The translations under genes were made by a program, and so were the position numbers. From Acidimicrobiales bacterium (lineage in GTDB: Bacteria; Actinomycetota; Acidimicrobiia; Acidimicrobiales; Palsa-688): a DNA stretch of 64,000 bases. Shown here piece by piece: positions 17,198-43,020 of the stretch. The stretch lies in contig DASZNC010000059.1 of assembly GCA_035551615.1 (NCBI GenBank), positions 13,099 to 77,098 of the forward strand, read 5' to 3'. Each line of letters opens with the position of its first letter. Positions within the stretch are counted from its first letter, which is position 1. The notes under the pieces were generated by a model. That model was not told the origin of the DNA. It did not search any database and saw only the letters and a list, made by a program, of their open reading frames with translations.

Positions 17198-18493
17198 TCA
17201 GGCGCCGATTCGGCTGGTGGCCGAACCCTCGTAGGGGGCGTTCCCGTAGTTGAACGCCCCGCCGTCGGCGGCGACCAACCAGTAGCCGCCATAGCTGCTG
17301 TCGGCGGCCAACCCGACCACCGGCGCGGCCAGCGTCGACCCACCCGCCGAGCCCAGGAACGGGGCGTGGAAACCGAAGACCCCGCCGTCGGCCGCCACCA
17401 GCCAGTAGCCACCGGTCGCCCGGTCGGCGGTGATCCCGACGACGGCGGCGCTGAGCGGAGCCGACCCGGCCGACCCATAGAAGGGGGCACCGCCGTAGGC
17501 GAACACCCCGCCGTCGGCGGCGGCCAGCCAGTAACCGTGCCCGCCCGGCGCGGCGGCGATGCCGACCACCGGTGCGGCGAGCGGATGGCCGGCAGCCGAA
17601 CCCTCGAAGCGGGCGTCCCCATAGGTGAACACCCCGCCGTCGGCGGCGACCAGGTAGTAGCCGCGCCCATCGGACGAGGCGGCAATACCGACCAGCGGTT
17701 GGGCCAGCCTGCGGCCGCCGGTCGACCCGTAGAACCGGGCCCCGTCGTAGCTGTACACCCCGCCGTCGGCGGTCACCATCCAGAACCCGCCGTTCGGATC
17801 GGAGGCCACCCCGACGAACGGGACATCGGATCCGTCACCCGCCTCGGTGACGGTGTTCGGCTCGGCGTAGACGACCCCGCTGGCCGTCGCTATCCGGAAG
17901 CCGCCCTGGGCGCCGGCCGGCGAACCCGACGACGGCCGGGCCGCCGGGCGGGCGGAAGAATCGCCGGTGACGCCGACGGCCGGGTCGGGCCGCAGCGCTT
18001 TGGCCGGCTGCACGACCGAATAGGTGCCCGGGCCCTGAGAGCAGGGCCGGCTGATACCGAGGGGGTACACCGCGCCTTGGCCGTCGCCGCTGATCCGGAG
18101 GAAAACCGACTGGGCGATGTCGGTGCAGTAGGCGGACCAGGCGACGGCGATGACCGGCGGGGCCATCTCATGGCCGGCGAACAGAAGGTCGACCGTCGCG
18201 TCCCCGCCGTCGGTTGCGATCCCGGCCGGGACGGCGCCGGCCGCATCGGTGATCTCGTCCGACAGCACCGGGGCGGTCGTGCAGCTCTGGCCCGGCCGGG
18301 CCGGTATCAACTGGATGGTCAGGACCTGGGTCCCGGCCGCGCCCTCGGTCGACTCCTGGCCGAAGGTGAAGTCGCACGGAGCCGGATGCGCCGGCAGCCG
18401 GGCTGCGGCCGGCGCGCCGCCGGCGATCGACCCGACGGCGATCAACAGTCCGGCCGCCGCGACCTTGGCTGCTGTCAGATGGAGTGACCTCAT
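17198..18493 (-). CDS. secreted protein: signal peptide + Cys-containing N-domain + 5-6 tandem ~38-aa propeller-like repeats (GYWLVAADGGVFxYGxAxFxGS)
   Basis: N-terminal signal peptide (AAGLLIAVGSIAGGAPAAA). The repeats are read directly; it is a paralog of 20146..21528. Confidence 0.75.
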   Translation of the reverse strand: MRSLHLTAAKVAAAGLLIAVGSIAGGAPAAARLPAHPAPCDFTFGQESTEGAAGTQVLTIQLIPARPGQSCTTAPVLSDEITDAAGAVPAGIATDGGDATVDLLFAGHEMAPPVIAVAWSAYCTDIAQSVFLRISGDGQGAVYPLGISRPCSQGPGTYSVVQPAKALRPDPAVGVTGDSSARPAARPSSGSPAGAQGGFRIATASGVVYAEPNTVTEAGDGSDVPFVGVASDPNGGFWMVTADGGVYSYDGARFYGSTGGRRLAQPLVGIAASSDGRGYYLVAADGGVFTYGDARFEGSAAGHPLAAPVVGIAAAPGGHGYWLAAADGGVFAYGGAPFYGSAGSAPLSAAVVGITADRATGGYWLVAADGGVFGFHAPFLGSAGGSTLAAPVVGLAADSSYGGYWLVAADGGAFNYGNAPYEGSATSRIGA

Positions 18494-20145: not shown

Positions 20146-21528
20146 ATGACCCTACGACCCCGCACCCCCACCGCCGCCGCCGCCGCCGTCGCCGTACTGG
20201 CCGCCGCCGGTGCCGCCGGCCTGGGCACCCACCCGGCCGTCGCCCAGGAGGTCCACAGCACGACCACCCCGGCGCACGTGGCGGCCAGCACCTCGCAGGC
20301 CTACAGCCTGCTCACGCGCGACGGCCGCCTGGTGGGCTTCGGTGGCGCCTTCTCCGGGACGGTAGCTGCGCCCAGTTCCCCGGTGGTGGGCGTGGCGTCC
20401 ACCCCCGATGGCCACGGCGCTTACGCAGCCGAGGCCGACGGGGCGGTGATCGCCCTGGGCGACGCCGTCTACCGCGGCTCCATGGCCGGCACCCGCCTGG
20501 CCCAACCGATCGTCGGCATCGCCATCGACCCGGCCACGGGTGGGTACTGGCTGGTGGCGTCCGACGGCGGCATCTTCTCCTTCGGCGACGCCCCCTTCTA
20601 CGGCTCCACCGGCGGCATCCACCTGTCCGAACCGGTGGTCGGCATCTCGGCCATGCCCGACGGGGGCGGCTACCGCATGGTCGCCACCGACGGCGGCGTC
20701 TTCTCCTTCGGCGACGCCCGCTTCTACGGTTCGACCGGGGGCGTGCACCTCAGCCAGCCGGTGGTCGGCATGGCCACCACGTCGTCCGGCAACGGCTACT
20801 GGCTGGTCGCATCCGATGGTGGCCTGTTCAACTACGGCGACGCCCATTTCTACGGTTCCACCGGCAACGTCCACCTGGTGAAGCCGGTCATCGCCATCAG
20901 CCCGACGACCAACGGGCACGGTTACTGGATGGTTGCGTCCGACGGTGGCATCTTCACCTTCGGCAACGCCGCCTACTACGGCTCCGGTTCCGGCCTCGGC
21001 ACGGAGGTGGTCGGGATGGCGACCGGCGCCACCGGCAACTACGACGATCCCCTCCGGGCCGTCGCCGGCCTCACGCCGGAGCGGGTCGACGAGGGCGTGG
21101 ACTATGCCGGCTCCGGGCCCATATATGCGCTGGGCGACGGGGTGGTCACGTCGACGGCCGGCTCGTGGCCGGACGGCAACTACATCTCCTACCGGCTGAC
21201 CGACGGCCCGGCCGCCGGGAAGATGGTCTACGTCGCCGAGAATGTCACCCCGACGGTCACCGTCGGCCAGGTGGTCAACGTCAACACGGTGGTCGGGATC
21301 CTCCATGACTCGTACCCGGACATGGAGATCGGTTGGTCCGCCGACTCCTACGGCGACACCATGGCGGCTGTCTCCGGCCAGTGGACGTCGGCCAACGACA
21401 GCGATTCCGACCCGACGGCCTACGGTGCCAACTTCGATCAGCTGTTGATGTCGCTCGGCGCGCCGTCGGGGATCATGGAGCACCCGACGCCGCACGGCAC
21501 GCTGGCCGCCGGCTGGCCCACCTGGTAG
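20146..21528 (+). CDS. secreted protein: signal peptide + ~6 tandem 38-40-aa propeller-like repeats + unknown ~170-aa C-terminal domain
   Basis: MTLRPRTPTAAAAAVAVLAAAGAAGLGTHPAVAQE signal peptide. Repeats GYWLVASDGGIFSFGDAPFYGSTGGIHLSEPVVGIS x6. RBS-like GGAAAG before the ATG. Confidence 0.8.
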   Translation: MTLRPRTPTAAAAAVAVLAAAGAAGLGTHPAVAQEVHSTTTPAHVAASTSQAYSLLTRDGRLVGFGGAFSGTVAAPSSPVVGVASTPDGHGAYAAEADGAVIALGDAVYRGSMAGTRLAQPIVGIAIDPATGGYWLVASDGGIFSFGDAPFYGSTGGIHLSEPVVGISAMPDGGGYRMVATDGGVFSFGDARFYGSTGGVHLSQPVVGMATTSSGNGYWLVASDGGLFNYGDAHFYGSTGNVHLVKPVIAISPTTNGHGYWMVASDGGIFTFGNAAYYGSGSGLGTEVVGMATGATGNYDDPLRAVAGLTPERVDEGVDYAGSGPIYALGDGVVTSTAGSWPDGNYISYRLTDGPAAGKMVYVAENVTPTVTVGQVVNVNTVVGILHDSYPDMEIGWSADSYGDTMAAVSGQWTSANDSDSDPTAYGANFDQLLMSLGAPSGIMEHPTPHGTLAAGWPTW

Positions 21529-24189: not shown

Positions 24190-27100
24190 TCAGAACCGCT
24201 GGAGCTCGGCCGCTCTCCGGGCGACGGCCGCATATCCGCATTCCTCGCTGATGCTGAGCGCCCGGGCCAGGTGCTTCTCGGCCAGCACCATGTCGTCGGG
24301 CCCACCGCGCTTCAGGAGCATGGCCGACCATTCCACCAGCGTGCGGGCTTCGAAGAACCGGGCTCCGATGCGCTGGCACTGTTCCTCCGATTCGGCGAAG
24401 CGCCGGTCGGACTCGGCGACGTCGCCGAGCAGCGCCCCGAGAGACGCGATGTAGTGCAGCAGCGGCCCGGTGCAGGTGTTGCCGTCGAGGCCGATCTGCC
24501 CGGCCCACGGCCGCACCATGTCGTACAGCGGTTCGGCCGCCCGGCGATCGCCCAGCCGGATGGCCGTCTCGGCGAAGCACAGGACCCCGGTGAGGAATCC
24601 GGGGTCGGGTTTCAACAGGGTGAAGCGGGTGGCCGTCCCCTCGTCGAGGTAGCGGGCGGCCCGGTCGACGTCACCGGAGTCCGAGGCCAGCATGGCCACC
24701 CCGCCCTTGAGGGCGGGCACGCCGGGCAGTCCGTCGGCCATGGCCTCGGCCAGAGCCAGATCGAACTGGCGGCCCGACTGCCAGAACACGTTCATCATGC
24801 TCAGTTGGAAGAAGTTGAGCGCTTCCGGCTGCGAGCTCTCCTCACCGAACTTGAACGCCTCGACCGATATGGCCTCGGCCTCCATGTAGTTGCCGGCGAG
24901 GAAATGGCGGGTGGCGTTCGAGAAACCGGCGACCCACCGGTGCAACGGCTGCGCCAGGCGCTCGGCCAGCTCCAACTCGTTGTGCAGGCACCGGTCGGCG
25001 TCGTCGATCAGGCCGGCCTGGAGGAGGTTGATGTGGTGGCGGTGCTCGGCCCAGAACCGGGTACCGAGGTCCCCCACCTGCTGGGCCAGCTCTATGGACT
25101 CGGCCGACATGGCCAGGCGCTCGTGCAGGGTGTCGGGGTTCCAGAGGGCGTGGAAGACCAGGTTGTGCACCCGGTAGAGCAGTGCCGGATCACCGACAGC
25201 CCGGGCCAGCGACAGCGATTCGTCGACCATGGCCCGACGCCGCGGGTAGTCGCCGTCGTAAGCCAGCTCGTTGGCCAGCACGGCCAGGAGCTCGCTGCGG
25301 GTGCGCCGGTCGGCCGGATCCACCAGCCGGAGGGCGCCCTCGAGCAACTCCACCTTCTCGTCGTCGACCAGGCCGAAGGCGGTGAACATGCCCCGGTTGC
25401 TGGCCATCACCGCCTGCGCCGAACCGACCGCATCGCCGACCTGGCGGGCCAGGCGGGCGGCCTGGAGCAGCGTCTCCCGGTACTGGCTGGATCCGGCCTG
25501 GGCCTGGGCCACCCCCAGCTTGGTCAGGAGGGTCACACGGGTCGAGGAGTCGTCGCCGGCGATGATGCCGTGCAGCTCGAGCGCCTTCTCGTACCAGCGG
25601 GCCGCCTCGTCAGGCGCCAGCGCCTGGGCCGCTTTGGCCGCCGCCCGCTCGGCGTAGTCCCGGGCCCGCCCGGCATTCACCGTGTACACCGCCCGGCTCC
25701 AGTGGTGGGCCAGCTCGGCCTGGCGCGAGCCCGCGTCCGGTGCCTGCTCCAGAGCCATGGCGACCTGCTGGTGCAACCGGGCCCGCCGGGTGGCGCCCGC
25801 ACCCTGCAGCAGCGTGTGGGCGACCAGGGCGTGGGAGAAGGCGTAGGTCCCCAGGCGATCGGGTACCTCGCGCAGCAACGAGGCGGCCCGCGCCCGTTCC
25901 AGCACCTGCAGCACCTCGTTCGGGGCCTGGCGCGACGCCGACTCGAGCGTCTCCAGCTCGAACTGGTTGCCGATCACAGCGGCGACGGTCAGCACATCGG
26001 AGGCGCCCGGCCCCAGGCGGTTGATGCGGGCGCCGATCACCTCGCGGATGCTTTCGGGCAGCTCCAATGAGCCGTCCGCGGCCGACAGGCTGGGCGCCGG
26101 GCCCACCAACGGGACCAGGCGGCCGGTCTCGGCCAGATGGTCGAGGAGCTCGCACAGGTAGAACGGGTTGCCGGCGGTCTCGTCGGCCAGCTGGCGGGCG
26201 ACGGCGTCGCTCTGGACTCCGTCCAGGTTGCCCCCGGCCCGTTCCGACACCAGCTCCCGCACGTCTCCGGTGGCCAGACCGGTGAGCGGTAGTCGGGTGA
26301 CGCCCTCCAGCCGGCGCAGAGCGGCCAGTGTCTCGTGGAGCGGGTGGCCGGGCGAGACCTCCGAGTCGCGGAACGTGACCAGCACCACCATACGGGCGCC
26401 GACGGCATTGGCCGCCAGGTGGCGCAGGAAGGTCAACGTGCCGGCGTCAGCCCAGTGCAGATCCTCGAGCAGCAGCACGACCGGGCTGTCCTCACCGAGG
26501 CTGGCCAGTAGGTCGGCGGCGGCGGCGAAACCCAGGTACCTCTCGGTCTCCGGCTCGGCGCCGTGGGCCGGACCGGGCACGTCGACCCGCCCGGTCAGGG
26601 CCGGCACCAGATGGGCGGCGGCGGCGCCGTGGCGGGCCACGTGGGCGGCCAGGACGTGAGCCGGGGCATGACGGACCAGATGGTCGAGCGCCCCCGACAC
26701 CGGTGCGTACGGCATCGTCAGTTCCTCGTCGCAGTAACCGACCCCGACGCTCGCCCCCCCGGCGTGCCAGTTGCGGACGGCCTGCACCGAGATCGAGGTC
26801 TTGCCCATGCCCGGCTCGGCGTGGATCAGCACCACCCGGCGACCGCCACCGTTGGCCACCTCCCGGTAGACACCGTCGAGGAGCGACAGTTCCTCCTGGC
26901 GGCCGACAAAAATGCGCGACGACGCCAGGCGCGGGGGCAGGGGCGTCCGCGACTCGTCGGGCGGCTCCCAGGCGACCTCGACCACCTCGACCGGGTCGGG
27001 CATCCCCTTCAGGGTGATGTCACCGGCCGTCCGGAAGGGCCGACCGGCCAGCCCGCGCGACGTGACCCGGACGATGTCGGCGGCCAGGGTCTGGCCGCCG

Positions 27101-27483
27101 GAGGCAGCCGCACACAGCCGGGACGCCTCCGCCACCGGGGCGCCGAAGCAATCGCCGTCCTCGAAGCTCACATCCCCGCCCGAGATACCGACCCGGACCG
27201 ACAGGGGACCCATGGCCAGTCGCTGGTTCTGGCGGTGCACCGCCTGCTGGATGGCGATGGACGCGGTCACCGCGTCCGAGGCCGAGTCGAACGTGGCCAT
27301 GAAGCCGTCACCCAGTCGCTTGACGACGGTGCCCCGGTGGACGCCGATGACGTCGCTCAAGAGGCTGTCGTGCTGCTTACGGAGCACCTCGGCTTCGGCC
27401 GGGCCCAGTCGCGCGGCCGTCTCTACCGATCCCACCAGATCGGTGAAGAGCACCGTCGCTGTTCTGGTCGGCAATCCCCGCAC
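24190..27483 (-). CDS. multidomain signalling protein: class III adenylate/guanylate cyclase + STAND-type AAA ATPase + TPR-like repeats (no C-terminal LuxR HTH)
   Basis: ATVLFTDLVGS...RLGDGFMATF cyclase motifs, Walker A EPGMGKTS, Walker B VVLLLEDLHWAD and a long helical-repeat C-terminus. 1097 aa. Confidence 0.85.
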   Translation of the reverse strand: MRGLPTRTATVLFTDLVGSVETAARLGPAEAEVLRKQHDSLLSDVIGVHRGTVVKRLGDGFMATFDSASDAVTASIAIQQAVHRQNQRLAMGPLSVRVGISGGDVSFEDGDCFGAPVAEASRLCAAASGGQTLAADIVRVTSRGLAGRPFRTAGDITLKGMPDPVEVVEVAWEPPDESRTPLPPRLASSRIFVGRQEELSLLDGVYREVANGGGRRVVLIHAEPGMGKTSISVQAVRNWHAGGASVGVGYCDEELTMPYAPVSGALDHLVRHAPAHVLAAHVARHGAAAAHLVPALTGRVDVPGPAHGAEPETERYLGFAAAADLLASLGEDSPVVLLLEDLHWADAGTLTFLRHLAANAVGARMVVLVTFRDSEVSPGHPLHETLAALRRLEGVTRLPLTGLATGDVRELVSERAGGNLDGVQSDAVARQLADETAGNPFYLCELLDHLAETGRLVPLVGPAPSLSAADGSLELPESIREVIGARINRLGPGASDVLTVAAVIGNQFELETLESASRQAPNEVLQVLERARAASLLREVPDRLGTYAFSHALVAHTLLQGAGATRRARLHQQVAMALEQAPDAGSRQAELAHHWSRAVYTVNAGRARDYAERAAAKAAQALAPDEAARWYEKALELHGIIAGDDSSTRVTLLTKLGVAQAQAGSSQYRETLLQAARLARQVGDAVGSAQAVMASNRGMFTAFGLVDDEKVELLEGALRLVDPADRRTRSELLAVLANELAYDGDYPRRRAMVDESLSLARAVGDPALLYRVHNLVFHALWNPDTLHERLAMSAESIELAQQVGDLGTRFWAEHRHHINLLQAGLIDDADRCLHNELELAERLAQPLHRWVAGFSNATRHFLAGNYMEAEAISVEAFKFGEESSQPEALNFFQLSMMNVFWQSGRQFDLALAEAMADGLPGVPALKGGVAMLASDSGDVDRAARYLDEGTATRFTLLKPDPGFLTGVLCFAETAIRLGDRRAAEPLYDMVRPWAGQIGLDGNTCTGPLLHYIASLGALLGDVAESDRRFAESEEQCQRIGARFFEARTLVEWSAMLLKRGGPDDMVLAEKHLARALSISEECGYAAVARRAAELQRF

Positions 27484-34299: not shown

Positions 34300-35110
34300 A
34301 CCTGGCCCGGTCCCAAACCATCCCGTCCGACGCCGGCTCCCGGTCGAGGAGGACCTGGGCCGGGCTCTGCTTGTCGATGTGGCCGATCAGGCTGTTGTAC
34401 ACGCCGTAGCCGACCATATCCCTGAGCCGGGCCGGCATCCGGGCCACCATCTCGACGGGCACACCCAGCTGCTGGTTCTCCTGCTGGCGGATGTAGCCGG
34501 CGCAGTAGTTCATGGCCACCCCGACCCGGCGCTCGCCGGTCGTGTTGGTGCCGCCGCCGTGCCACAGGCTGCCATGCCACACGAGCACGCTCCCCCGCCG
34601 CATGACGGCCGGCTCCGAGTCGTAGTGCCGGCCGTAGTCCGGGGACGAGTCGGCCAGGTGGGTGCCGCTGATGATCCGGGTGGCACCGTTGGCCTCGGTG
34701 AAGTCGGTCAGCGCCCACATGGTGTTGCAGACGGTCGGCGGGTGCGGCTTGGGAATGGGGATCAGCTGATCGTCGGCGTGGATGGGCTGGGCGCTCTCAC
34801 CCGGCCGGATGTCGATCGACGACAGGGAGGACACCAGGCAGCCCCGGTCGAGCACGCCTTCGACGACGGGCAGCACGGCCGGGTGCAACGGGACCTGCCA
34901 CCACAGCTCGCCGCGGGCCAGCAGGTTGTAGACCCGGTAGGTGCTGCGCCCTTCGAAAGAGTTGTCGGCCGGCTGCACCTCCAACTCGGCGACCAGCCGG
35001 TCCACGTCGGCGAGCAGCCCGTCGGCCCCCGCCGGGTCGATGGCGTCCTCGACCACGGTCCAACCCTGTTCGGCGATGCAGTCGATGTGGTCCTGGGCGG
35101 TCAGGGTCAC
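34280..35110 (-). CDS. phytanoyl-CoA dioxygenase (PhyH) family Fe(II)/2OG oxygenase
   Basis: HADDQ (H-x-D) and a later H (GSLWHGGG) facial-triad pattern. 276 aa. Confidence 0.8.
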   Translation of the reverse strand: MTLTAQDHIDCIAEQGWTVVEDAIDPAGADGLLADVDRLVAELEVQPADNSFEGRSTYRVYNLLARGELWWQVPLHPAVLPVVEGVLDRGCLVSSLSSIDIRPGESAQPIHADDQLIPIPKPHPPTVCNTMWALTDFTEANGATRIISGTHLADSSPDYGRHYDSEPAVMRRGSVLVWHGSLWHGGGTNTTGERRVGVAMNYCAGYIRQQENQQLGVPVEMVARMPARLRDMVGYGVYNSLIGHIDKQSPAQVLLDREPASDGMVWDRARSTARPS

Positions 35111-36495
35111 TCCGTGTGGTCACCTTCCACGAAGCCACCGTTCAGGGCGGCCGGCGCGCTCCCGTGGCCGTTGGCCAGCGGGGCGGCCTGACCCAGGCTG
35201 TGGCGCAGGGTCTCGAAGATGGTGAGGCCCTGGGCGGCCAGGCCGACGGCGACCTCACCGACGCCCTGGGAACCGTTGAGCACGGTCAGGTTCGACCCGG
35301 ATATGCCGCCGGCCGCAGCCTGCACCAGTGCGGGCAGCATCTCGACCAGCTTGTTGGCCGCGATCAGCGGCTGGTTGTCACCCGACAGGGCGGCCGCCCG
35401 GGCGTTGATGGCGTCAGCCTCGGCGGCGGCGGTGGTCCGCTGGGCGAACGCCTCGGCGTCGGCTTCGGCCTTACGGGCATCGGCCGCACCCTGGGCCGAC
35501 GCCCGCTGGGCATCGGCGTCGGCCTCGGCCAGCTGACGTTTCCGTGACGCCTCCGCCTCGGTCGTGAGCAGGGTGGTGTCGCGGTTGGCTTCGGCCATGG
35601 CCCGCTGGCGGAAGGCTTCGCCCTCGGTGTTGTGCTTCACGGCATCGCGGGCGGCCTCGGCCATCGTCCGCTGCTTGTACGCCTCGGCGTCGGCCGGCCG
35701 GCGCACGTCGGACTCGAGCCGCTTGTCGGTCAGCGCCGCCTGGCGCTCGGCCAGCATCGTCTGCTCGGAGATCACGTCCTGCTGCGCCTTGGCGTCGGCC
35801 AGCGGGCCGGCCTGGGCCGCCCTGGCCTCGGCGTCGTGGACCTCGGCCTGGATGGAGGCCTGCAGGATGGCCGTCTGCTGGGCGAACTGGGCCTTGGCCC
35901 GGGCCGCCGCCTGCTCCTTCTCGGACGCCTCCTGATCACGCTCGGCGGCGGCGATCCGGGCCTGCGACGCCACCGCTGCGGCGTGGGGCGCAGCCAGGTT
36001 GGCGATGTATCCGGTCGGGTCCTCTATCTCCTGGATCTGCAGGCCGTCGACGACGATGCCCAGTTTTTCCATCTCCGGATGGGAACCGTCCTTCACCTCC
36101 TGGGCGACCTTGTCGCGCTCCCGCACGATCTCCTCGACGGTCAGGCTGCCGACGATCGACCGGAGGTGGCCGGCGAAGATGCGCCCGCAGAGCTCCTCCA
36201 TCCGGTTCTGCTCGGCCAGGAAGCGGCGGGCGGCGTTGGCGATCGACGCCGGATCGTCGCCCACCTTGAACACGGCAACGGCCCGCACCCGCAGCGGGAT
36301 GCCCTGGGTGGTCACGCATTCCTCGAGCAGCTCGGCCTCTCTGAGGGCGAGGGAGAGGAGCCGGGCCTTCTGCTTCACCGGCAGGACGAAGGCGCCGTGG
36401 CCGGTCACTATCCGGAACTGCTGATTCCCGTCCTTGTGCTTGGACCCCGAGATGAGCAGCGCTTCGTCAGGAGCCGGGACATGCCAGAACAGCAT
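35107..36495 (-). CDS. flotillin-like SPFH/band-7 protein
   Basis: SPFH domain N-terminus and a long Ala/Glu/Arg-rich coiled-coil (AEAxxQR repeats). Its stop overlaps the PhyH start (35107-35110). Confidence 0.85.
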   Translation of the reverse strand: MLFWHVPAPDEALLISGSKHKDGNQQFRIVTGHGAFVLPVKQKARLLSLALREAELLEECVTTQGIPLRVRAVAVFKVGDDPASIANAARRFLAEQNRMEELCGRIFAGHLRSIVGSLTVEEIVRERDKVAQEVKDGSHPEMEKLGIVVDGLQIQEIEDPTGYIANLAAPHAAAVASQARIAAAERDQEASEKEQAAARAKAQFAQQTAILQASIQAEVHDAEARAAQAGPLADAKAQQDVISEQTMLAERQAALTDKRLESDVRRPADAEAYKQRTMAEAARDAVKHNTEGEAFRQRAMAEANRDTTLLTTEAEASRKRQLAEADADAQRASAQGAADARKAEADAEAFAQRTTAAAEADAINARAAALSGDNQPLIAANKLVEMLPALVQAAAGGISGSNLTVLNGSQGVGEVAVGLAAQGLTIFETLRHSLGQAAPLANGHGSAPAALNGGFVEGDHTE

Positions 36496-36502
36496 CGTTA
36501 CC

Positions 36503-36736
36503 TCACAGACCGTCGGCCTCAGGGAACGGGGTTACGTCCACTGTGCGGGCCGACCTTTCGTCGACGATGACCACGGGAGAATGCTTGGCGACCGGGACGT
36601 CGCAGTAGGCGGCATAGCGCTCGGTGCCCCCGCGTATGGACACGACGATCTCACCCGGCCGGCCGGCCGGGATGGGCACGGTGACCCGGCCCATCCGGCC
36701 CTTCAGCGCTTCGGGTTCGTCCTCGCCATCGTCCAT
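36503..36736 (-). CDS. NfeD-like short protein (OB-fold), flotillin partner
   Basis: 77-aa product GRVTVPIPAGRPGEIVVSIRGGTERYAAYCD...VVIVDERSARTVDVTP, a typical NfeD C-terminal beta-barrel. It ends 7 nt before the flotillin gene start. Confidence 0.65.
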   Translation of the reverse strand: MDDGEDEPEALKGRMGRVTVPIPAGRPGEIVVSIRGGTERYAAYCDVPVAKHSPVVIVDERSARTVDVTPFPEADGL

Positions 36737-36792
36737 CGAGATGGATAGTAGGCACGCCCGTCGGGAAACCGACCAGGGCGTCCTCCGCATTT

Positions 36793-36839
36793 CGCCATTG
36801 CGCCATCGGGCGGCATTGGGCCATTGCGCCATCGGGCGG
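36793..36839. repeat. 21-bp direct repeat GCCATTGCGCCATCGGGCGGC x2 (5-nt spacer)
   Basis: Read directly in the sequence. It lies in the 107-nt gap between the CHAT gene stop and the NfeD start. Confidence 0.45.
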
Positions 36840-36843
36840 CCGG

Positions 36844-39432
36844 TCAGCCGCCGCCGAAGCAGACGAAGCCGGCCGAGCTGGGCGAGGCGTAGGGTCCGCC
36901 CATCTGGCGGCGGGCCATGGCCAGCGCCGACGACGGCGGTACCCGGTCGGCCAGGGCCCGGTGGAGAGCGGTCATCAGCCCGACGGCCGAGCTGTCGGCG
37001 ACCGGGCTGACGCTGGCCAGGGCGGTACCGACGCCGGTCTGGGTCAGCACCTGGCCCAGACCGAGGCCGCTGCTGGTGTCGGCCATACCGGTGTCGCAGC
37101 ACGACAGGACGACGACCGCCGCCCGCTTCTCGGCGGTGGCCAGCTCGTAACCGGTCAGATGCCCGTCACTCAACCTGATCCCCGACAGCATCGGGTTGTC
37201 GCCGCGGTGGGTGCCGTGGGCGGCGACGTGGACCAGGTCGCTGTCGGTCAACTCGGCCAGCACCCGCTCTACGGTCGCCTCCCTACCCCGCAGCACGGTC
37301 ACATCCGGCCACAGCCGGCTGATCCGGTCGACCTCCTCGTCGGCATGCTGCAGGTCGGGCCCCGCCACCAGGAGCACCCGGGGACGGGCCGGCGGCCGCT
37401 GGCACTCGCGGTGGGCGTCCATCCAGGCCGTGGCCGACGAGGCGACGGTCACATCGGCGTCGACCAGGCCGGGCAGGAGAGCCCACGGCACCGAAGCCAG
37501 GGCCCCCTCCGGCACGATCACGTACCCGGACGCCGGCGGACGGTCGAACGCCGGCAACAGCAGGGCCCCGGCCGCCCGGGCCGCTGACCGCAGGGACCGG
37601 TCACCGGTACCGGACGAGATGGCCGCGCCGAGGGCCAGACGCAGGCCGGCCACCGCCCGGCGGGCCGCCGAGCGGTCGGCCATGTCGATGATTCGCCGGT
37701 CGTCACCGTCGGCCACGATGGCGAGCAGGCGGTCGCCGGTGACGGCGAAACTGACCAGTACCCGCCCGGCGAACGTCTCGGCGAAGGCGGCCCGGTCCAT
37801 GGGCCGCACCGCCAACCCCGTGTCGCCCGAATGGTGCCGGCTGTAGCGACGCACTATCTCCTCCACGGCGGCCTGCCGTTGGCGGAGCCGGGTGACCTGG
37901 GCCACGGTGCTGTCCTCCCGGTTGATCTCCTCGGTCACCCCCCTGAGCCGGTTCAGCAGCCGGGCGATCTCCGGGTCATCGGCCGGACGCATCTGGGCTC
38001 GGGTCGTCTGGCGGACCGCTTCGGTCCATCTGAGCGCGTCGTCGGGCCGGCCGGCGCGGGCGGCGATGCGCAGGCCGATCGACATCAGTTCATCGGCCCG
38101 ACCGCCGCCCCGGCTGCGCAGTTCCAACGAACCGAGGGTCGCCAGGAAGGCGCGCAGGGCGGCCAGGCCGTCGATGAGCGCCCGACGGGCGCCGGCCAGA
38201 TCACCCTCGGCCGACGACAGCTGGGCCTCGACCAGGTAGATCTGGAGGCGGCTCAGGGGCGTCTGCTCGCCGGCCGTCGCGGTCAGACGGTGGACCAGGT
38301 CATGGGCCCGGTCGTGCGCCGGCGATTCGATGAGCACGGCCGCCGCCCGGGTCTCGGCCTCGATGGCCGGGGCGAACCAACCGGCCCGTCTCAGATCGCC
38401 GGCCAGCTCTATGAGGGCGTCCGGCCGGTCGGCCGCCGTCACCCTCAACTCGGCCAGGCGGGCCAGCAGGCTCCAGCGGGGCCGGTGCTGCTGCTCGAAC
38501 CACTCCCCGGCCCGGGCCGCCCACCGGGCCGCCGCCCCCATGTCCCCGTCGAGCTCGCAGGACCGGGCCGCCAACAGAGCCGCCTCCGGCACGTCGGCGT
38601 CGAAGCCACCCTTCTGCAGCAGCTCGACCGCGGATTCCGACAGGGCCCGACCCTCGGCCACCAGACCGGCGTCGAGGGTCACCTGGACACGGTCGACGAG
38701 GGCCTGGGGGCGGAGCACACCCAAACGGCCGGCCCGGGCCTGGGCGGCGTCGAAGCGGGCCAGCGCCGTCGGCACGTCGCCGCGGAGGGCAGCTACGAAG
38801 CCCAGGTTGTGCTCCGCCTCCATGGCCCGGATGTCCTGACCCTCAGCGGCGAACACCTCCGCCGCCGCTTGCAGGTCGACCTCCGCCTGTTCGAAGTCGC
38901 CCCGGTAGGCCTGCACGATGCCGCGGTTCTGGCGGGCCACGCCGGCCTCGACGATCATCCCGGCCGCGGTGCAGGCGTCGGCCGCGGTGTTCCAGCAGTC
39001 GAGGGCGTCGATCTCGCGGCCGGATCGCTGGAGGGCCAGCCCTTTCTGTATGAGGGCGCGGGCCCGTTCCCGTTGGTTCAACCAGGGACCGGCCCGCTCG
39101 ATGAGCGCGATCGCCTCGTCGAACTGGCCGGCATCGATCCGCTCGAGGGCCAAGGCGACCGACGCCTCGGAGGCGCCGCGGGTGTCACCGGCCGATTCGA
39201 GCAGATCGACGGCGGCCCGCAGATCGGGCCCGGCTTCGCCCAGCCGGCCCAGCTGGCGGGCGGCCCGGCCCCGGGCCCAGGCCATCCGGCCGGCCAACCG
39301 GTCCTGGCCGGACCCCGGTTCGACCGTCGCCACCAGGTCGAGCGCCCGGCGGGGGTCGGATTCGGCCAGCCGGAGGGCTTCTTCGACCCGTGCCTCCTGG
39401 TCTCCGGTGACGCCGGAGCTGGTGTCCACCAA
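36844..39432 (-). CDS. TPR-repeat protein with C-terminal CHAT (caspase-like) protease domain
   Basis: About 550 aa of helical TPR-like repeats followed by a CHAT region with conserved His (LVHVAAHGTH) and Cys (VVVLSCCDTG) dyad. 862 aa. Confidence 0.85.
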   Translation of the reverse strand: MVDTSSGVTGDQEARVEEALRLAESDPRRALDLVATVEPGSGQDRLAGRMAWARGRAARQLGRLGEAGPDLRAAVDLLESAGDTRGASEASVALALERIDAGQFDEAIALIERAGPWLNQRERARALIQKGLALQRSGREIDALDCWNTAADACTAAGMIVEAGVARQNRGIVQAYRGDFEQAEVDLQAAAEVFAAEGQDIRAMEAEHNLGFVAALRGDVPTALARFDAAQARAGRLGVLRPQALVDRVQVTLDAGLVAEGRALSESAVELLQKGGFDADVPEAALLAARSCELDGDMGAAARWAARAGEWFEQQHRPRWSLLARLAELRVTAADRPDALIELAGDLRRAGWFAPAIEAETRAAAVLIESPAHDRAHDLVHRLTATAGEQTPLSRLQIYLVEAQLSSAEGDLAGARRALIDGLAALRAFLATLGSLELRSRGGGRADELMSIGLRIAARAGRPDDALRWTEAVRQTTRAQMRPADDPEIARLLNRLRGVTEEINREDSTVAQVTRLRQRQAAVEEIVRRYSRHHSGDTGLAVRPMDRAAFAETFAGRVLVSFAVTGDRLLAIVADGDDRRIIDMADRSAARRAVAGLRLALGAAISSGTGDRSLRSAARAAGALLLPAFDRPPASGYVIVPEGALASVPWALLPGLVDADVTVASSATAWMDAHRECQRPPARPRVLLVAGPDLQHADEEVDRISRLWPDVTVLRGREATVERVLAELTDSDLVHVAAHGTHRGDNPMLSGIRLSDGHLTGYELATAEKRAAVVVLSCCDTGMADTSSGLGLGQVLTQTGVGTALASVSPVADSSAVGLMTALHRALADRVPPSSALAMARRQMGGPYASPSSAGFVCFGGG

Positions 39433-39477
39433 CCCGGCTCTCGGATCAGCCCGGGCCGGAGATGCCGACCGGATCGG

Positions 39478-39948
39478 TCACACCGTCACCCACTCGGTCT
39501 GGAACCCGGGGACCTCCGGATCGGAGGGCACGGCCCGGATGCTGACGGCACCACGCGGCAGCTCCTCGAAGTAGAACTGCCCGAGTGCGTCGATCGGCCG
39601 GGTGACGTCGGCCCGTCCGGGGTGACGGAGGAGTACCGCCCCAGCGATCACCGGATCGAACCGGCCGGCGAGCCGGCGGCCGGCGTCGATGACGGTCAGC
39701 TCGGCGGTGCCGCTCGGCGCCCGGAAACGCAGCCGTCGCTCGGCCACGCCGGCGCGCACCCGGGCCAGATCGTCGTCGTCGACGGCCGAGTCGAACTCCA
39801 GGTCGGCGACGGCGGCCACCACACTCCGCCAGCCGAAAGCCGTCCGAGCCGCCGACGTGACGGCGGCCGGCACCGGCTCGGCCCGGCGCAGGACGGCGAC
39901 CGCCTCGGCCAGCAGGCTCTCCTCACCCGACCAGAAACTGTCGGTCAT
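39478..39948 (-). CDS. hypothetical soluble protein (157 aa), translationally coupled to ECF sigma factor; candidate sigma regulator
   Basis: Its ATG at 39946-39948 overlaps the sigma gene stop (ATGA). No TM segment or zinc anti-sigma motif was seen. Confidence 0.5.
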   Translation of the reverse strand: MTDSFWSGEESLLAEAVAVLRRAEPVPAAVTSAARTAFGWRSVVAAVADLEFDSAVDDDDLARVRAGVAERRLRFRAPSGTAELTVIDAGRRLAGRFDPVIAGAVLLRHPGRADVTRPIDALGQFYFEELPRGAVSIRAVPSDPEVPGFQTEWVTV

Positions 39949-40520
39949 TGCATCCTTTCGGTAACGGTGTCCTGCTGTTGTCCTTCTCGGAGCAGCCGTT
40001 CGAGTCTTTGGAGACAGCGTGATCGGGTGGGTCCGATGCTTCCCATCGGCACTCCCAGGTTCGAACTGAGGTCGGTGTACGACGCCGGCGGATCGGCGGA
40101 CAGCGCGATGAGCATGCGCCGGCAGCGATCGGGCAGAAGCGCTACCGCCATCTGGACGGCCAACTCCCGCTCGGTGGCGAGCACGGCCAGTTCCGGATCG
40201 TCCACCGCGTCGTCGGGCCGGTCGAGCCATTGCCAGGGATCGACGGGCACATGGCGCACCCCGAGTCGCGAGACCCGAATCGCCTCTCGCCGGGCGGTGG
40301 TGGCCAGCCAGGCCCCCACCCTCGAGGTGTCGTTCAACTGGTCGAGATGCTCGGCCAGGCGCATCCAGGTCGTCTGGCTGACGTCGGCGGCGTCGGCGTC
40401 GTCGAGGCCCACGGAGCGGGCCACCGACCACACCAGACCGGAGAACCGGTCGACCAGGAGTGACCACGCATGTTCGTCGTCGGCCGCCGCCCGGGTGACC
40501 AGCTCATCTACTTGGTCCAC
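39945..40520 (-). CDS. ECF-type RNA polymerase sigma factor
   Basis: Region 2 (FSGLVWSVARSVGLDDADAADVSQTTWMRL) and region 4 (LPDRCRRMLIALSADPPASYTDLSSNLGVPMGSIGPTRSRCLQRL). Confidence 0.85.
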   Translation of the reverse strand: MDQVDELVTRAAADDEHAWSLLVDRFSGLVWSVARSVGLDDADAADVSQTTWMRLAEHLDQLNDTSRVGAWLATTARREAIRVSRLGVRHVPVDPWQWLDRPDDAVDDPELAVLATERELAVQMAVALLPDRCRRMLIALSADPPASYTDLSSNLGVPMGSIGPTRSRCLQRLERLLREGQQQDTVTERMQ

Positions 40521-40593
40521 GCCCAGGAGATCCTAACCAGTCGGCTTCGGCAACGTCCGATCCGCGGCTATCGGGGGGCCCGGTCAGGCCGGC

Positions 40594-40635
40594 GGCATCA
40601 GCCACCACCCCATACCGGCATCAGCCACCACCCCA
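40594..40635. repeat. 19-bp direct repeat GGCATCAGCCACCACCCCA x2 (4-nt spacer) upstream of ECF sigma gene
   Basis: Read directly in the sequence, 74-115 nt upstream of the sigma start codon at 40520. Confidence 0.45.
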
Positions 40636-40796
40636 GATGGGAGCACCGCCGGCCACCCATACCGCGGCCAGGCTGGCCAGGACCATGCCGGCGTGGACCG
40701 CCCGGTTCATCATCACTCGACGCATCAGCGTCCTCCTCTCGGGGGCCGGGACGAGTTCCCTGCCCTCCGTCCAAAGAGAGTCCGATGCCTCCCGAA

Positions 40797-40870
40797 TTGA
40801 TACACCTGAAATTTTTCCTTTGACATGTATCAAACGGGGATCCGGGCGCCTCTTATGTGAGCGAGTCACA
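40797..40870. promoter_or_regulatory. two inverted repeats (TTGATACA-N21-TGTATCAA and TGTGA-N5-TCACA) in an AT-richer stretch upstream of the DUF5317 gene
   Basis: Read directly. The first spacer contains a TTTGACA -35-like hexamer. The GAGGAG RBS follows at 40880-40885. Confidence 0.35.
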
Positions 40871-40890
40871 GAAGTATGTGAGGAGTGCCA

Positions 40891-41499
40891 ATGCTCATAT
40901 TGCTCGTCGCGGTCGCAGCCGGTGTCCTGATCGGACTGGCTACCGGCGGCCGCCTGAGCGGCCTTGGTGACTTCCGCCTGCGCATGTGGCCCCTCCTCCT
41001 CGGAGCGGTGGCCGTGGAGTTGGTCGTCGGGGACCTACCGTCGGGTCCCCGCTGGGTTCTGGGGCTCGCCGCCTGCGTCGTCGCCGGAATCTGGTGCATG
41101 GTCAACCGACCCGTCGGGCGGCGGGTGGCGGGCCCCGAGCTCATCGGCGTCGGTGCCGCCCTCAATGCGGTCGTCATGGCCGCCGACTCGGGCATGCCGG
41201 TATCCCGATCGGCACTGGTTCAGGCCCATCTGGGTGGCATCCCGGATGTGACACGGGGCCACCTCTACAAGCACGTGGCCATGACCGGTCACACCGCCCT
41301 GCGGCCGCTGGGTGACGTCATCCCGGTGAGCCCGCTGCGCACGGTCGTCTCTGTGGGCGATGTCCTGATGCTCGCCGGCATCGTCGTCACCGTGGCCGTG
41401 GCCACCAGAACCCACCGGTCGGAGCCGAACGCCCCGGCCGGCACCGAGCCCGCCGATCGCCAACTCCTGCCCCGGCAGGAGCTCGCCAAAGGAACATGA
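40891..41499 (+). CDS. DUF5317-like integral membrane protein
   Basis: About 6 TM helices and a strong RBS. This family commonly neighbours c-di-GMP enzymes. Confidence 0.6.
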   Translation: MLILLVAVAAGVLIGLATGGRLSGLGDFRLRMWPLLLGAVAVELVVGDLPSGPRWVLGLAACVVAGIWCMVNRPVGRRVAGPELIGVGAALNAVVMAADSGMPVSRSALVQAHLGGIPDVTRGHLYKHVAMTGHTALRPLGDVIPVSPLRTVVSVGDVLMLAGIVVTVAVATRTHRSEPNAPAGTEPADRQLLPRQELAKGT

Positions 41500-41724: not shown

Positions 41725-43020
41725 ATGGAGACTGGGGAATCTGGACCGAGACGATCAGCGGCGCCGGTGGCCGTGCTGGGTGAGGTCACCGACCCGCTGC
41801 AGGTGCTGCGCCGGATCGTGGACCAGGCCATGGTGCTGGTCTCCGGCGCCGAGGGCGCCGTCGTCGAGGTGCTGATCGACGACCAGCTGGATTATGTGTG
41901 CACCGCCGGCACCCTGGCGCCCTATGCCGGGCTGCGCCTGGCCGTGACCGGCAGCCTGTCCGGGATGGCGCTCAACACCGGGGAGATCCTCCGCTGCGAC
42001 GACTGCGAGTCCGACGGGCGCGTCGACCGGATCGCCTGCCGGGAGGTCGGCGCCGTGTCGATGCTGTGCGTGCCGCTGCGCAAGCCGCCGCACGACGTCG
42101 GCGTCCTGAAGGTCACCTCGACGCAGAAGTCGGCGTTCACCGAGCGGGACATGCGGGTCCTCAGCCAGCTCTCCGAGTTCATAACCAGTGCTGTCGCGGT
42201 GGCCGCCGATGCCTCACGGGTGCTCGGCGGCGACCACGAGTCGGACTCCCTCTCCGCCTTCGTCGCCAACGTCATAGAGCCCGGCCGCCACATCGAGCAC
42301 AACAGCCGGCGCCGGATCGAACAGGTCCTGGCCGATCGTCGCTACGAGAGCCTGTACCAACCGATCATCGACCTGACCACCAACCGGCTGTTCGGGGTCG
42401 AGGCCCTGACCCGCTTCGCCGACGTGCCCTACCGATCACCCGACCTCTGGTTCGCCGAGGCCGAAGCGGCCGGCCTCGGACTGGTGCTGGAGCTGGCTGC
42501 GGTGGAATCGGCCGTCCGTCTCCTACCGGCGCTGCCGGCCGGCATCCGCCTCAGCGTCAACGTCGGCCCCCGGACCATCGTCTCGGCCGAACTGGAGGCC
42601 ATGATCGAAGAGGCCGGACCGGACCGCATCGTCGTGGAGTTGACCGAGCACCTGCGGGTCGAGGACTACCCCGGGCTGAACCGGAACCTGCAGTCGTTAC
42701 GGGAGCGCCAGACCCTCCTGGCCATCGACGACACCGGCGCCGGGATCTCGAGCCTGACGCACATCCTGAAGCTGGCTCCCGACATCATCAAGCTGGACCG
42801 CGAGATCACGAGCGGCATCGACATCGACCCGGTGCGCCGGGCGCTGGCCGCCGCCCTCGGCACGTTCGCAGCCGAGTCGGGCAGCATCGTCGTCGCCGAG
42901 GGCATCGAGTCCGAGGCGGAACTGGCCGTCCTGCAGGACATGGGCGTCAGGTACGGGCAGGGCTTCCATCTGGGACGCCCGACCCGGGCGGCGGACGTCC
43001 TGACCCGGGCTCGGCGTTGA
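41725..43020 (+). CDS. GAF-EAL domain c-di-GMP phosphodiesterase
   Basis: N-terminal GAF domain. EAL motifs are intact: GVEALTRF, AIDDTGAGISSL, IKLDREIT, VVAEGIESEAE...GQGFHLGRP. Confidence 0.85.
   Translation: METGESGPRRSAAPVAVLGEVTDPLQVLRRIVDQAMVLVSGAEGAVVEVLIDDQLDYVCTAGTLAPYAGLRLAVTGSLSGMALNTGEILRCDDCESDGRVDRIACREVGAVSMLCVPLRKPPHDVGVLKVTSTQKSAFTERDMRVLSQLSEFITSAVAVAADASRVLGGDHESDSLSAFVANVIEPGRHIEHNSRRRIEQVLADRRYESLYQPIIDLTTNRLFGVEALTRFADVPYRSPDLWFAEAEAAGLGLVLELAAVESAVRLLPALPAGIRLSVNVGPRTIVSAELEAMIEEAGPDRIVVELTEHLRVEDYPGLNRNLQSLRERQTLLAIDDTGAGISSLTHILKLAPDIIKLDREITSGIDIDPVRRALAAALGTFAAESGSIVVAEGIESEAELAVLQDMGVRYGQGFHLGRPTRAADVLTRARR

Follow-up and report, generated by a model that had tools for sequence, protein, structure and literature searches.

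The activity of some extracytoplasmic function (ECF) sigma factors is controlled by a C-terminal extension of the sigma factor. For others, a soluble protease is part of the control, as in the CalpL-CalpT-CalpS cascade of protease, anti-sigma factor and ECF sigma factor, where the protease is of the SAVED-Lon type. Two systems studied experimentally involve proteins that combine tetratricopeptide repeats (TPR) with a caspase-like CHAT domain. First, in Craspase, the type III-E CRISPR system, cleavage of Csx30 by Csx29 is reported to relieve inhibition of the ECF sigma factor CASP-sigma, and the sigma factor autoregulates its locus (PMC10028731). Second, the DdvA-DdvS system of Myxococcus xanthus has a TPR-CHAT anti-sigma factor, DdvA, with the catalytic dyad H862/C907 (PDB 8ROT); DdvA-like proteins are described only from Myxococcota and one Comamonas (PMC11506125). 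A third group is defined by its gene neighborhood. Genes for ECF54 sigma factors have conserved neighbors whose products carry CHAT, subtilase and carboxypeptidase domains, which led to the proposal that these sigma factors are controlled by proteolysis; an example comes from Geodermatophilus (PMC8999054, citing Huang 2015 and Casas-Pastor 2021). Casas-Pastor et al. 2021 also place a 4Fe-4S protein in this neighborhood. In the literature that we found, ECF54-type sigma factors are known only from genome context. Here, we describe a locus of this type in a 64,000-nt stretch of DNA from an Acidimicrobiales bacterium (GenBank assembly GCA_035551615.1, contig DASZNC010000059.1, positions 13,099 to 77,098 of the forward strand). 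We refer to this whole stretch as “the window”, and all coordinates are positions within it.

The locus encodes an ECF sigma factor, a small soluble protein that we call the partner, and a TPR-CHAT protein predicted to be a caspase-like protease. Together, these form a genuine, conserved actinobacterial gene module. An earlier note on this DNA had regarded a sigma-linked TPR-CHAT module as one with no known established function. That view is outdated: the ECF54 context has been published, and both DdvA-DdvS and Csx29-Csx30-CASP-sigma have been studied experimentally. The association of sigma and CHAT genes is thus already on record as comparative genomics, mechanistic precedents exist, and the module is not categorically new. 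A search for CHAT proteins in the ECF and anti-sigma literature gave only Craspase, DdvA and CalpL, and no experimental work on the free-standing actinobacterial module. What is new here is the partner family with its invariant linker, the natural fusions between sigma factor and partner, a promoter-like motif with the wiring that it implies, and a clade variant that lacks the subtilase and has a micro-ORF (a very short open reading frame) and a gene for a DUF5317 protein.

The sigma, partner and TPR-CHAT genes

All three genes are on the minus strand, at the positions reported in the earlier note: the sigma gene at 39945..40520, the partner gene at 39478..39948 and the TPR-CHAT gene at 36844..39432. 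The ATG of the partner gene overlaps the TGA of the sigma gene as ATGA, as had been described, and the encoded protein is 156 aa long rather than the 157 aa given before. The partner and CHAT genes are separated by 45 nt. The CHAT gene starts with TTG, and an alternative GTG lies 3 nt further downstream. A scan of the region from 36 to 41.5 kb found no terminator-like site on the coding strand inside this cluster, and Rfam and sigma-70 promoter scans of the same region returned nothing relevant. Base composition is ~71% G+C across the whole window, with no break at the locus. The best sequence match, P0001, is 100% identical and derives from a metagenome-assembled genome of the Acidimicrobiales.

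The sigma gene has a GTG start and encodes 191 aa. Its product matches Pfam Sigma70_r2 (5e-12), scores 59.1 bits against TIGR02937 (cutoff 42.9) over aa 17–176, and aligns full-length, through residues 3–177, with the solved ECF sigma factors SigH, SigL, RpoE, SigW and SigK. With sigma2 and sigma4 regions only, a length of ~190 aa and scores above the cutoffs, the protein is assigned by sequence to the ECF (group IV) branch of the sigma-70 family, in agreement with the earlier call. Its placement in the ECF54 type comes from gene context and not from sequence classification. Like ECF54 factors, it is an actinobacterial ECF sigma factor with no zinc-binding anti-sigma (ZAS) or transmembrane (TM) anti-sigma protein beside it: the adjacent 156-aa protein lacks Cys and any TM-like segment and matches neither zf-HC2 nor RskA. 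It also has carboxypeptidase-regulatory-like and CHAT neighbors, although the partner in the window itself falls below the threshold for PF13620. The Peptidase_S8 subtilase found in the wider family is absent from the 64-kb window. The locus also differs from the described ECF54 neighborhood in having a micro-ORF and a DUF5317 gene under a common motif, and no 4Fe-4S protein was seen here.

The 862-aa product of the third gene matches Pfam CHAT (PF12770; 3e-31, 109 bits, cutoff 24) over aa 629–845. TPR families are matched within aa ~50–230, so that TPR repeats are indeed present, but by profile they cover only this part of the ~550 aa claimed earlier. Two motifs, HVAAHG at 735–740 and LSCCDTG at 776–782, contain the putative catalytic residues H739 and C779; H735, H739, C779 and G782 are invariant in 12 CHAT orthologs that are 28–50% identical. 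A phmmer search of the full-length protein against the PDB gave no match, and a full-length profile was dominated by TPR proteins; the CHAT domain alone was used instead. Its best match was the 991-aa DdvA chain, 8rot_B (E 2.7e-7), and in this profile alignment H739 pairs with DdvA H862 and C779 with DdvA C907. In the Csx29 chain 7x8a_D (E ~1e-3), the same two columns correspond to the HG and AC residues numbered 585/627 along the chain. Judged from these alignments, the CHAT domain keeps an intact caspase-type dyad in register with characterized members, which bears out the His/Cys dyad proposed in the earlier note. The protein has no TM-like segment and no ZAS or other anti-sigma domain, and is predicted to be a cytoplasmic caspase-like protease.

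The partner has no Pfam or NCBIfam match. The earlier observation that it has neither a ZAS motif nor a TM segment is correct: the protein contains no Cys, and hence no HxxxCxxC, and no TM-like segment. It also has two predicted helices, where class I and ZAS anti-sigma factors are recognized by three to four helices, a family match and HxxxCxxC. A hidden Markov model built from 56 close homologs matched 2,558 representatives of 50%-identity clusters, 1,105 of them at E<=1e-10, and nearly all of the matched proteins are 145–170 aa long. Among 52 diverse members of this family, 33 weakly match CarboxypepD_reg (PF13620; best 3.7e-5), and one family member is named by NCBI as a “carboxypeptidase-like regulatory domain-containing protein”. 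The middle protein, described before as hypothetical, is neither an orphan nor an incidental gene product; it belongs to a large family without a name and is a carboxypeptidase-regulatory-like partner of the sigma factor.

An AlphaFold2 (AF2) model of the partner, made with 56 sequences, has a mean predicted local distance difference test score (pLDDT) of 80; model numbering is that of the 156-aa protein plus one. Two helices are predicted at model residues 6–24 and 29–49, followed by a linker at residues 50–70 (pLDDT <55) and an Ig-like or CarboxypepD_reg-like beta-sandwich at residues 72–157 (pLDDT >90). The linker sequence LEFDSAVDDDDLARVR (aa 50–65) is acidic, with the pattern L-x-F/Y-D-S ... 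V-R, and is invariant across the family yet predicted to be disordered. As modeled, this combination of invariance and low pLDDT would be typical of a docking or cleavage motif. The partner is thus a candidate for a non-canonical anti-sigma factor and protease substrate.

The conservation of the module was surveyed in 25 related loci, L001–L025. Twelve loci came from a contig scan with the middle protein; the rest were reached through the exact encoding contigs of 12 distant partner-family members that are 32–41% identical. Eleven of the 12 scanned loci are of the Acidimicrobiales type, all with the sigma, partner and CHAT genes in the same order, and this order is kept in 12/12 loci of the window's clade. 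In the distant set, the sigma gene is directly upstream of the partner in 11 of the 12 loci; it is frameshifted in L024, and L025 has no adjacent sigma gene. Over the whole survey, the partner adjoins sigma in 24/25 loci, with the 4-nt stop/start overlap present in the window as well as in eight or more of the other loci. Wherever the flanking sequence is long enough, a TPR-CHAT gene is found only a few genes away, and it can be upstream, downstream, divergent or convergent. Its constant proximity despite variable order and orientation argues for a functional rather than a merely operonic link. Synteny of the sigma, partner and CHAT genes is far beyond chance, and the comparison of related genomes that the earlier note had proposed as a check has thus turned out in its favor, with the module kept in 25 related loci.

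The overlapping or tight gene spacing, the lack of an internal terminator and the conserved order in the window's clade together support the sigma, partner and CHAT genes being a single functional unit. The single operon proposed earlier is consistent with these features, but the gene set is larger than was described, with the addition of the micro-ORF and the DUF5317 gene.

Of all components of the module, the partner is the one most tightly tied to the sigma factor. Three natural proteins of 301–304 aa (P0141, P0343 and P0344, with identities of 78% and 39% among them) are in-frame fusions of the two, in which the last sigma4 helix continues directly into partner helix 1. Two of the three fusion genes lie between a divergent Peptidase_S8 (S8) gene and downstream TPR/CHAT genes (L021 and L022). 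The existence of these fusions suggests that sigma factor and partner act as one physical unit. The fusions resemble ECF sigma factors with C-terminal regulatory extensions, whereas the partner in the window is encoded separately. An apparent partner-CHAT fusion (L008:5962-9102) was rejected as a likely long-read assembly artifact, because it has a frameshift near the partner C-terminus relative to the near-identical L007.

A subtilase gene of the Peptidase_S8 family is found beside the module in L012–L019 and L021–L025, including an unannotated 471-aa ORF in L016; L020, an error-prone and fragmentary assembly, gives no clear S8 call. Signal peptides are lacking in most of these subtilases. 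The survey thereby independently recovers the triad of carboxypeptidase-like, subtilase and CHAT genes published for ECF54. In a tblastn search with six module subtilases as queries, no subtilase was found in the 64-kb window or in L001–L011. The Acidimicrobiales clade looks like a subtilase-less variant of the module whose outputs are membrane proteins.

The candidate promoter motif, the micro-ORF and the DUF5317 gene

Alignment of the 330 nt upstream of the sigma gene in 12 loci revealed a motif, GTAYC-N18-CTCT, located ~50 nt before the micro-ORF, with a mirror copy facing the DUF5317 gene. In the window, the minus-strand copy (40777..40803) reads GTATC-N18-CTCT, is kept at the same place in relatives, and is a candidate ECF-type promoter for a unit of micro-ORF, sigma, partner and CHAT genes. 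The plus-strand copy (40827..40853), a strict match, lies 31 nt before the DUF5317 start. The strict motif occurs exactly twice in the window, both times in this 160-nt divergent region, against 0.39 occurrences expected; 3/100 shuffles reach two. The divergent pair is present in 9/12 clade loci. A relaxed form of the motif has 33 matches in 20 loci (244 kb), compared with 5.0±2.1 in Markov-1 random sequence.

Across loci, the motif takes the form GTAYC-N17/18-CTCT and is found in several positions: (i) before the sigma gene, in L013, L014/15, L019, L023 and L024; (ii) inside the 3′ end of the sigma gene just before the partner, in L012, L016, L018 and L020, where the two genes do not overlap; (iii) immediately ahead of the partner in L025, where no sigma gene adjoins it; (iv) before the S8 gene, in L019 and L025, with variants in L013 and L017; and (v) before two small genes in L014/15. 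By contrast, the motif is missing from the 160 nt upstream of separately transcribed CHAT genes (L013, L014/15, L016, L017, L019, L023 and L025). From this distribution, we infer that the motif is the sigma factor's own promoter, such that the sigma factor would autoregulate and would drive the partner and an adjacent output gene. CHAT would usually be expressed independently of sigma, as for an upstream sensor; the absence of the motif before separately transcribed CHAT genes fits a CHAT protein that acts upstream of the sigma factor.

The micro-ORF (40621..40725, minus strand) encodes the 34-aa peptide MRRVMMNRAVHAGMVLASLAAVWVAGGAPIWGGG. It has the same length and register in 12/12 loci of the Acidimicrobiales clade and is absent from the loci of other clades. 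Substitutions are of the coding type: variable columns by codon position number 16/20/30, and the ratio of synonymous to nonsynonymous codon differences is 568:848 in frame, as against 89:1242 and 198:1170 out of frame. The ATG is preceded at 6–14 nt by the purine-rich sequence GAGAGGAGG, which is GAAAGGGG in most relatives. The micro-ORF is the first gene of the sigma unit in the window's clade. Its peptide has a basic N-terminus, a single hydrophobic helix (TM-like, residues 9–27) and a conserved GGAPxWGG tail, and may be either a micro-protein of the membrane or a leader peptide with a regulatory role.

Two features of the sequence around the micro-ORF are recorded here in their own right. 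A GC-rich hairpin (GGCCGG...CCGGCC; 40744..40764, minus strand) is conserved in the 5′ untranslated region of the micro-ORF, downstream of the candidate −10 element and upstream of the ribosome-binding site; it has a few compensatory changes, a weak covariation term (−0.57 kcal/mol) and no Rfam match. At 40580..40640 (minus strand), a tandem duplication of ~22 nt, GGGGTGGTGGCTGATGCC, in two copies, extends the spacer between micro-ORF and sigma gene to 100 nt, as against ~20–30 nt in most relatives.

The DUF5317 gene (40885..41499, plus strand) encodes an integral membrane protein of 204 aa (Pfam 6.5e-19) with at least three TM-like segments. It is divergent from the sigma gene in 10/11 clade loci; in L009 it has moved to the other side of the CHAT gene, where it is still adjacent to the module. 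The DUF5317 gene is probably a sigma-dependent output gene in the window's clade.

Genes for cyclic di-GMP (c-di-GMP) turnover also occur on this side. A GAF-EAL gene (41725..43020, plus strand) begins 225 nt downstream of DUF5317 in the window, and c-di-GMP turnover genes are found on the side of the divergent unit in 7/25 loci (the window, L003, L007, L008, L011, L021 and L022). In L021 and L022, the loci with sigma fusions, a GGDEF-EAL gene directly adjoins the S8 gene or overlaps with it, and in four clade loci a GGDEF-EAL gene is 2–3 kb away. Since such genes are common, their proximity may be due to chance.

Possible control of the sigma factor by proteolysis

The reading that we tentatively favor, though we would stop just short of calling it probable, is an ECF54-type, wholly cytoplasmic and protease-gated sigma switch, in which the partner would sequester the sigma factor until CHAT cleaves the partner and sets the sigma factor free. 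Inhibition of the sigma factor would be the task of the two N-terminal helices of the partner. In most lineages, production of the TPR-CHAT protein would not depend on sigma; its TPR array would sense a cytoplasmic cue, and the protease would then cut the acidic linker that separates the partner's helices from its beta-sandwich and that is invariant yet disordered. Loss of the partner remnant would free the sigma factor, which may then transcribe its own unit, giving both positive feedback and a renewed supply of inhibitor. In the window's clade, the freed sigma factor would also drive the neighboring output, DUF5317 and perhaps the GAF-EAL gene; in other clades, the output would be the subtilase, which mostly has no signal peptide. 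Regulated proteolysis that activates the sigma factor was among the roles suggested in the earlier note. In favor of the switch are the constant company of sigma, partner and CHAT genes, the natural fusions, the anatomy of the partner, the intact dyad of CHAT, the distribution of the motif, and the precedents of Craspase, of DdvA and of the proteolytic control proposed for ECF54. The binding of partner to sigma, the cleavage and its site, the cue and the identity of the sigma factor that uses the motif are all inferred.

How this proposed switch compares with known systems can be stated for each of them in turn. Craspase is similar in that it combines a cytoplasmic TPR-CHAT protein with an ECF sigma factor and with a soluble sigma-binding protein of non-ZAS type, a role that is proposed here for the partner, and the CHAT dyads align. 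Unlike Craspase, the locus has no Cas7-11, crRNA or CRISPR array, and its activation therefore cannot be RNA-guided. Moreover, the partner resembles no solved chain in a PDB profile search, and the similarity of the CHAT protein to Csx29 is weak and restricted to the catalytic core. DdvA has the closest solved CHAT domain, and for DdvA, too, a TPR-CHAT part is proposed to gate the release of an ECF sigma factor by proteolysis. However, DdvA is a single TM protein that carries its zinc-binding anti-sigma domain at the N-terminus and its TPR-CHAT part in the periplasm, whereas the CHAT protein in the window has neither TM segment nor anti-sigma domain, the putative sigma-binding part being the separate 156-aa protein; here again, similarity is limited to the CHAT core. 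CalpL/T/S is likewise a soluble cascade of protease, anti-sigma factor and ECF sigma factor, but the protease fold here is CHAT and there is no cyclic-oligoadenylate machinery nearby.

Several observations weigh against the switch. ECF54 factors have been described as having no anti-sigma factor (PMC8999054). The 52 partner-family members match no family besides PF13620, and the partner matches no anti-sigma family in Pfam or NCBIfam; a profile search of the PDB with the partner gave only four chains at E<=10, all of them unrelated and none an anti-sigma factor. In the AF2 model of the fusion protein P0141, sigma2, sigma4 and the sandwich are folded, with a predicted template modeling score (pTM) of 0.39, a pLDDT <50 for partner helix 2 and the linker, and no defined packing of sigma factor and partner; the model speaks neither for nor against an anti-sigma-like embrace. 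Both the substrate and the position of the cut are guesses. The strict promoter motif is missing in L009, L010, L021 and L022 and appears only as a variant in L005, L006, L017 and L018, and recognition of the motif by the sigma factor is suggested by motif conservation only. Lastly, in the window's clade and in L018 the CHAT gene is downstream of sigma in the same unit; its expression would then be induced by sigma, as would be expected just as well of an output gene.

This last point leads to an alternative in which CHAT, and elsewhere the subtilase, would be an output or effector of the sigma factor. The pair of sigma factor and partner would be switched by some other cue, and the proteases would reshape or break down proteins of the cytoplasm as part of, for instance, a developmental, stress or abortive-infection-like response. 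We consider this unlikely. It would account for the position of CHAT directly downstream of sigma and partner in the window's clade and in L018, with no promoter or terminator detected between them, and for the sigma-type motif before S8 in L019 and L025. In addition, free-standing CHAT proteins are effectors or activators in defense systems, and the defense-gene search tool PADLOC reported for the CHAT protein a weak match to BovA (1.7e-6, 25 bits, aa 738–826 against positions 512–598 of the 720-residue model) as well as a match to a “subtilase” model. Against an output role, the CHAT gene is separately transcribed, without the motif in the 160 nt upstream, in at least seven loci. The PADLOC matches, at ~25 bits, cover only part of the CHAT domain; there are no defense genes nearby, and base composition is uniform. 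The Borvo (BovA) anti-phage system itself was rejected as an identification, there being no full-length match and only CHAT-core similarity.

A second alternative, to which we give an equally low probability, dispenses with an anti-sigma factor. Here, CHAT or S8 would degrade or process the sigma factor directly, with the partner serving as an adaptor, chaperone, decoy or co-regulated output. The wording of the literature on ECF54 favors this alternative (PMC8999054), as do the dissimilarity of the partner to known anti-sigma domains, the lack of confident packing between sigma factor and partner in the AF2 model of the fusion, and L025, which has partner, S8 and CHAT genes without an adjacent sigma gene. 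On the other hand, translational coupling of the partner to sigma and its recurrent fusion to the sigma C-terminus resemble known anti-sigma pairs and regulatory extensions; a sigma-type promoter directly before the partner is the classic negative-feedback wiring of an anti-sigma factor; and the invariant disordered linker is in the partner, not in the sigma factor.

An anti-phage role is very improbable. In this reading, the TPR array would sense a phage cue and set off a protease-to-anti-sigma-to-sigma cascade like that of Craspase or CalpL/T/S but without CRISPR. In its favor, the experimentally studied cascades of CHAT or SAVED-Lon protease and ECF sigma factor are all linked to defense, another CHAT gene and a TIR/ubiquitin-like gene lie beside the module in L025, and the CHAT protein has its weak PADLOC matches. 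Against it, the 64-kb window contains no CRISPR array, cas or other defense genes and has metabolic neighbors, the DUF5317 synteny is stable and vertical-looking across an order, PADLOC gave no match for sigma, partner or DUF5317, and there is no compositional anomaly. A “defense island” reading of the window was rejected on the same neighborhood grounds.

Returning to the protease-gated switch, a more far-reaching version seems to us possible but doubtful. It holds that a free-standing, CRISPR-independent switch in which a protease cleaves a sigma inhibitor is widespread in Actinomycetota; that the two-helix/beta-sandwich partner is a new family of anti-sigma factors, with the linker as the docking or cleavage site for CHAT; that the TPR array is a cytoplasmic sensor; and that the output here would be directed to the membrane through the micro-peptide and DUF5317, possibly with c-di-GMP turnover. 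If this were true, the control of sigma factors by caspase-like proteases would be a common means of signaling in the cytoplasm of Actinomycetota rather than a curiosity of CRISPR and defense, and the partner would supply a new anti-sigma fold. The vague notion of “proteases nearby” is now a concrete proposed circuit, with a candidate motif for docking or cleavage in the partner, Rosetta-stone fusions, a candidate promoter motif for a mini-regulon and a wiring argument that would put CHAT upstream. Should the circuit not be confirmed, the locus would still be a well-delimited member of a known, uncharacterized ECF group.

Other features of the window and of related loci

The module in the window is surrounded by genes for GH3, PhyH, flotillin, DEAD helicase, WS/DGAT and similar proteins. 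Two genes directly follow CHAT on the same strand (35107..36811, minus): a small ORF within 36503..36811, whose product looks NfeD-like by eye in its C-terminal part and has no Pfam or NCBIfam match, and a FloT-like gene of the SPFH/flotillin family (Band_7 2.7e-21). Neither of them accompanies the module in other loci, and the two are probably a separate unit. A 26-nt tandem repeat is located right after the CHAT stop codon, at 36787..36840.

In L025, the partner, S8 and CHAT genes without an adjacent sigma gene (L025:12358-15865) are followed by a second CHAT gene and by a TIR plus ubiquitin-like gene, which gives this locus a defense-like flavor unlike that of the window. Further from the module in the window, a gene at 24190..27483 (minus) encodes a protein of 1,097 aa in which an adenylate/guanylate cyclase domain at the N-terminus precedes an AAA_16 ATPase domain; our guess is a large STAND-type cyclase regulator. 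A similar Guanylate_cyc+AAA_16 gene is found near the module in L024. Finally, the window contains two arrays of ~126-nt tandem repeats, at 17252..17783 and 20545..20985, with 3.3–3.5 copies and 71–73% matches, which presumably encode 42-residue protein repeats.

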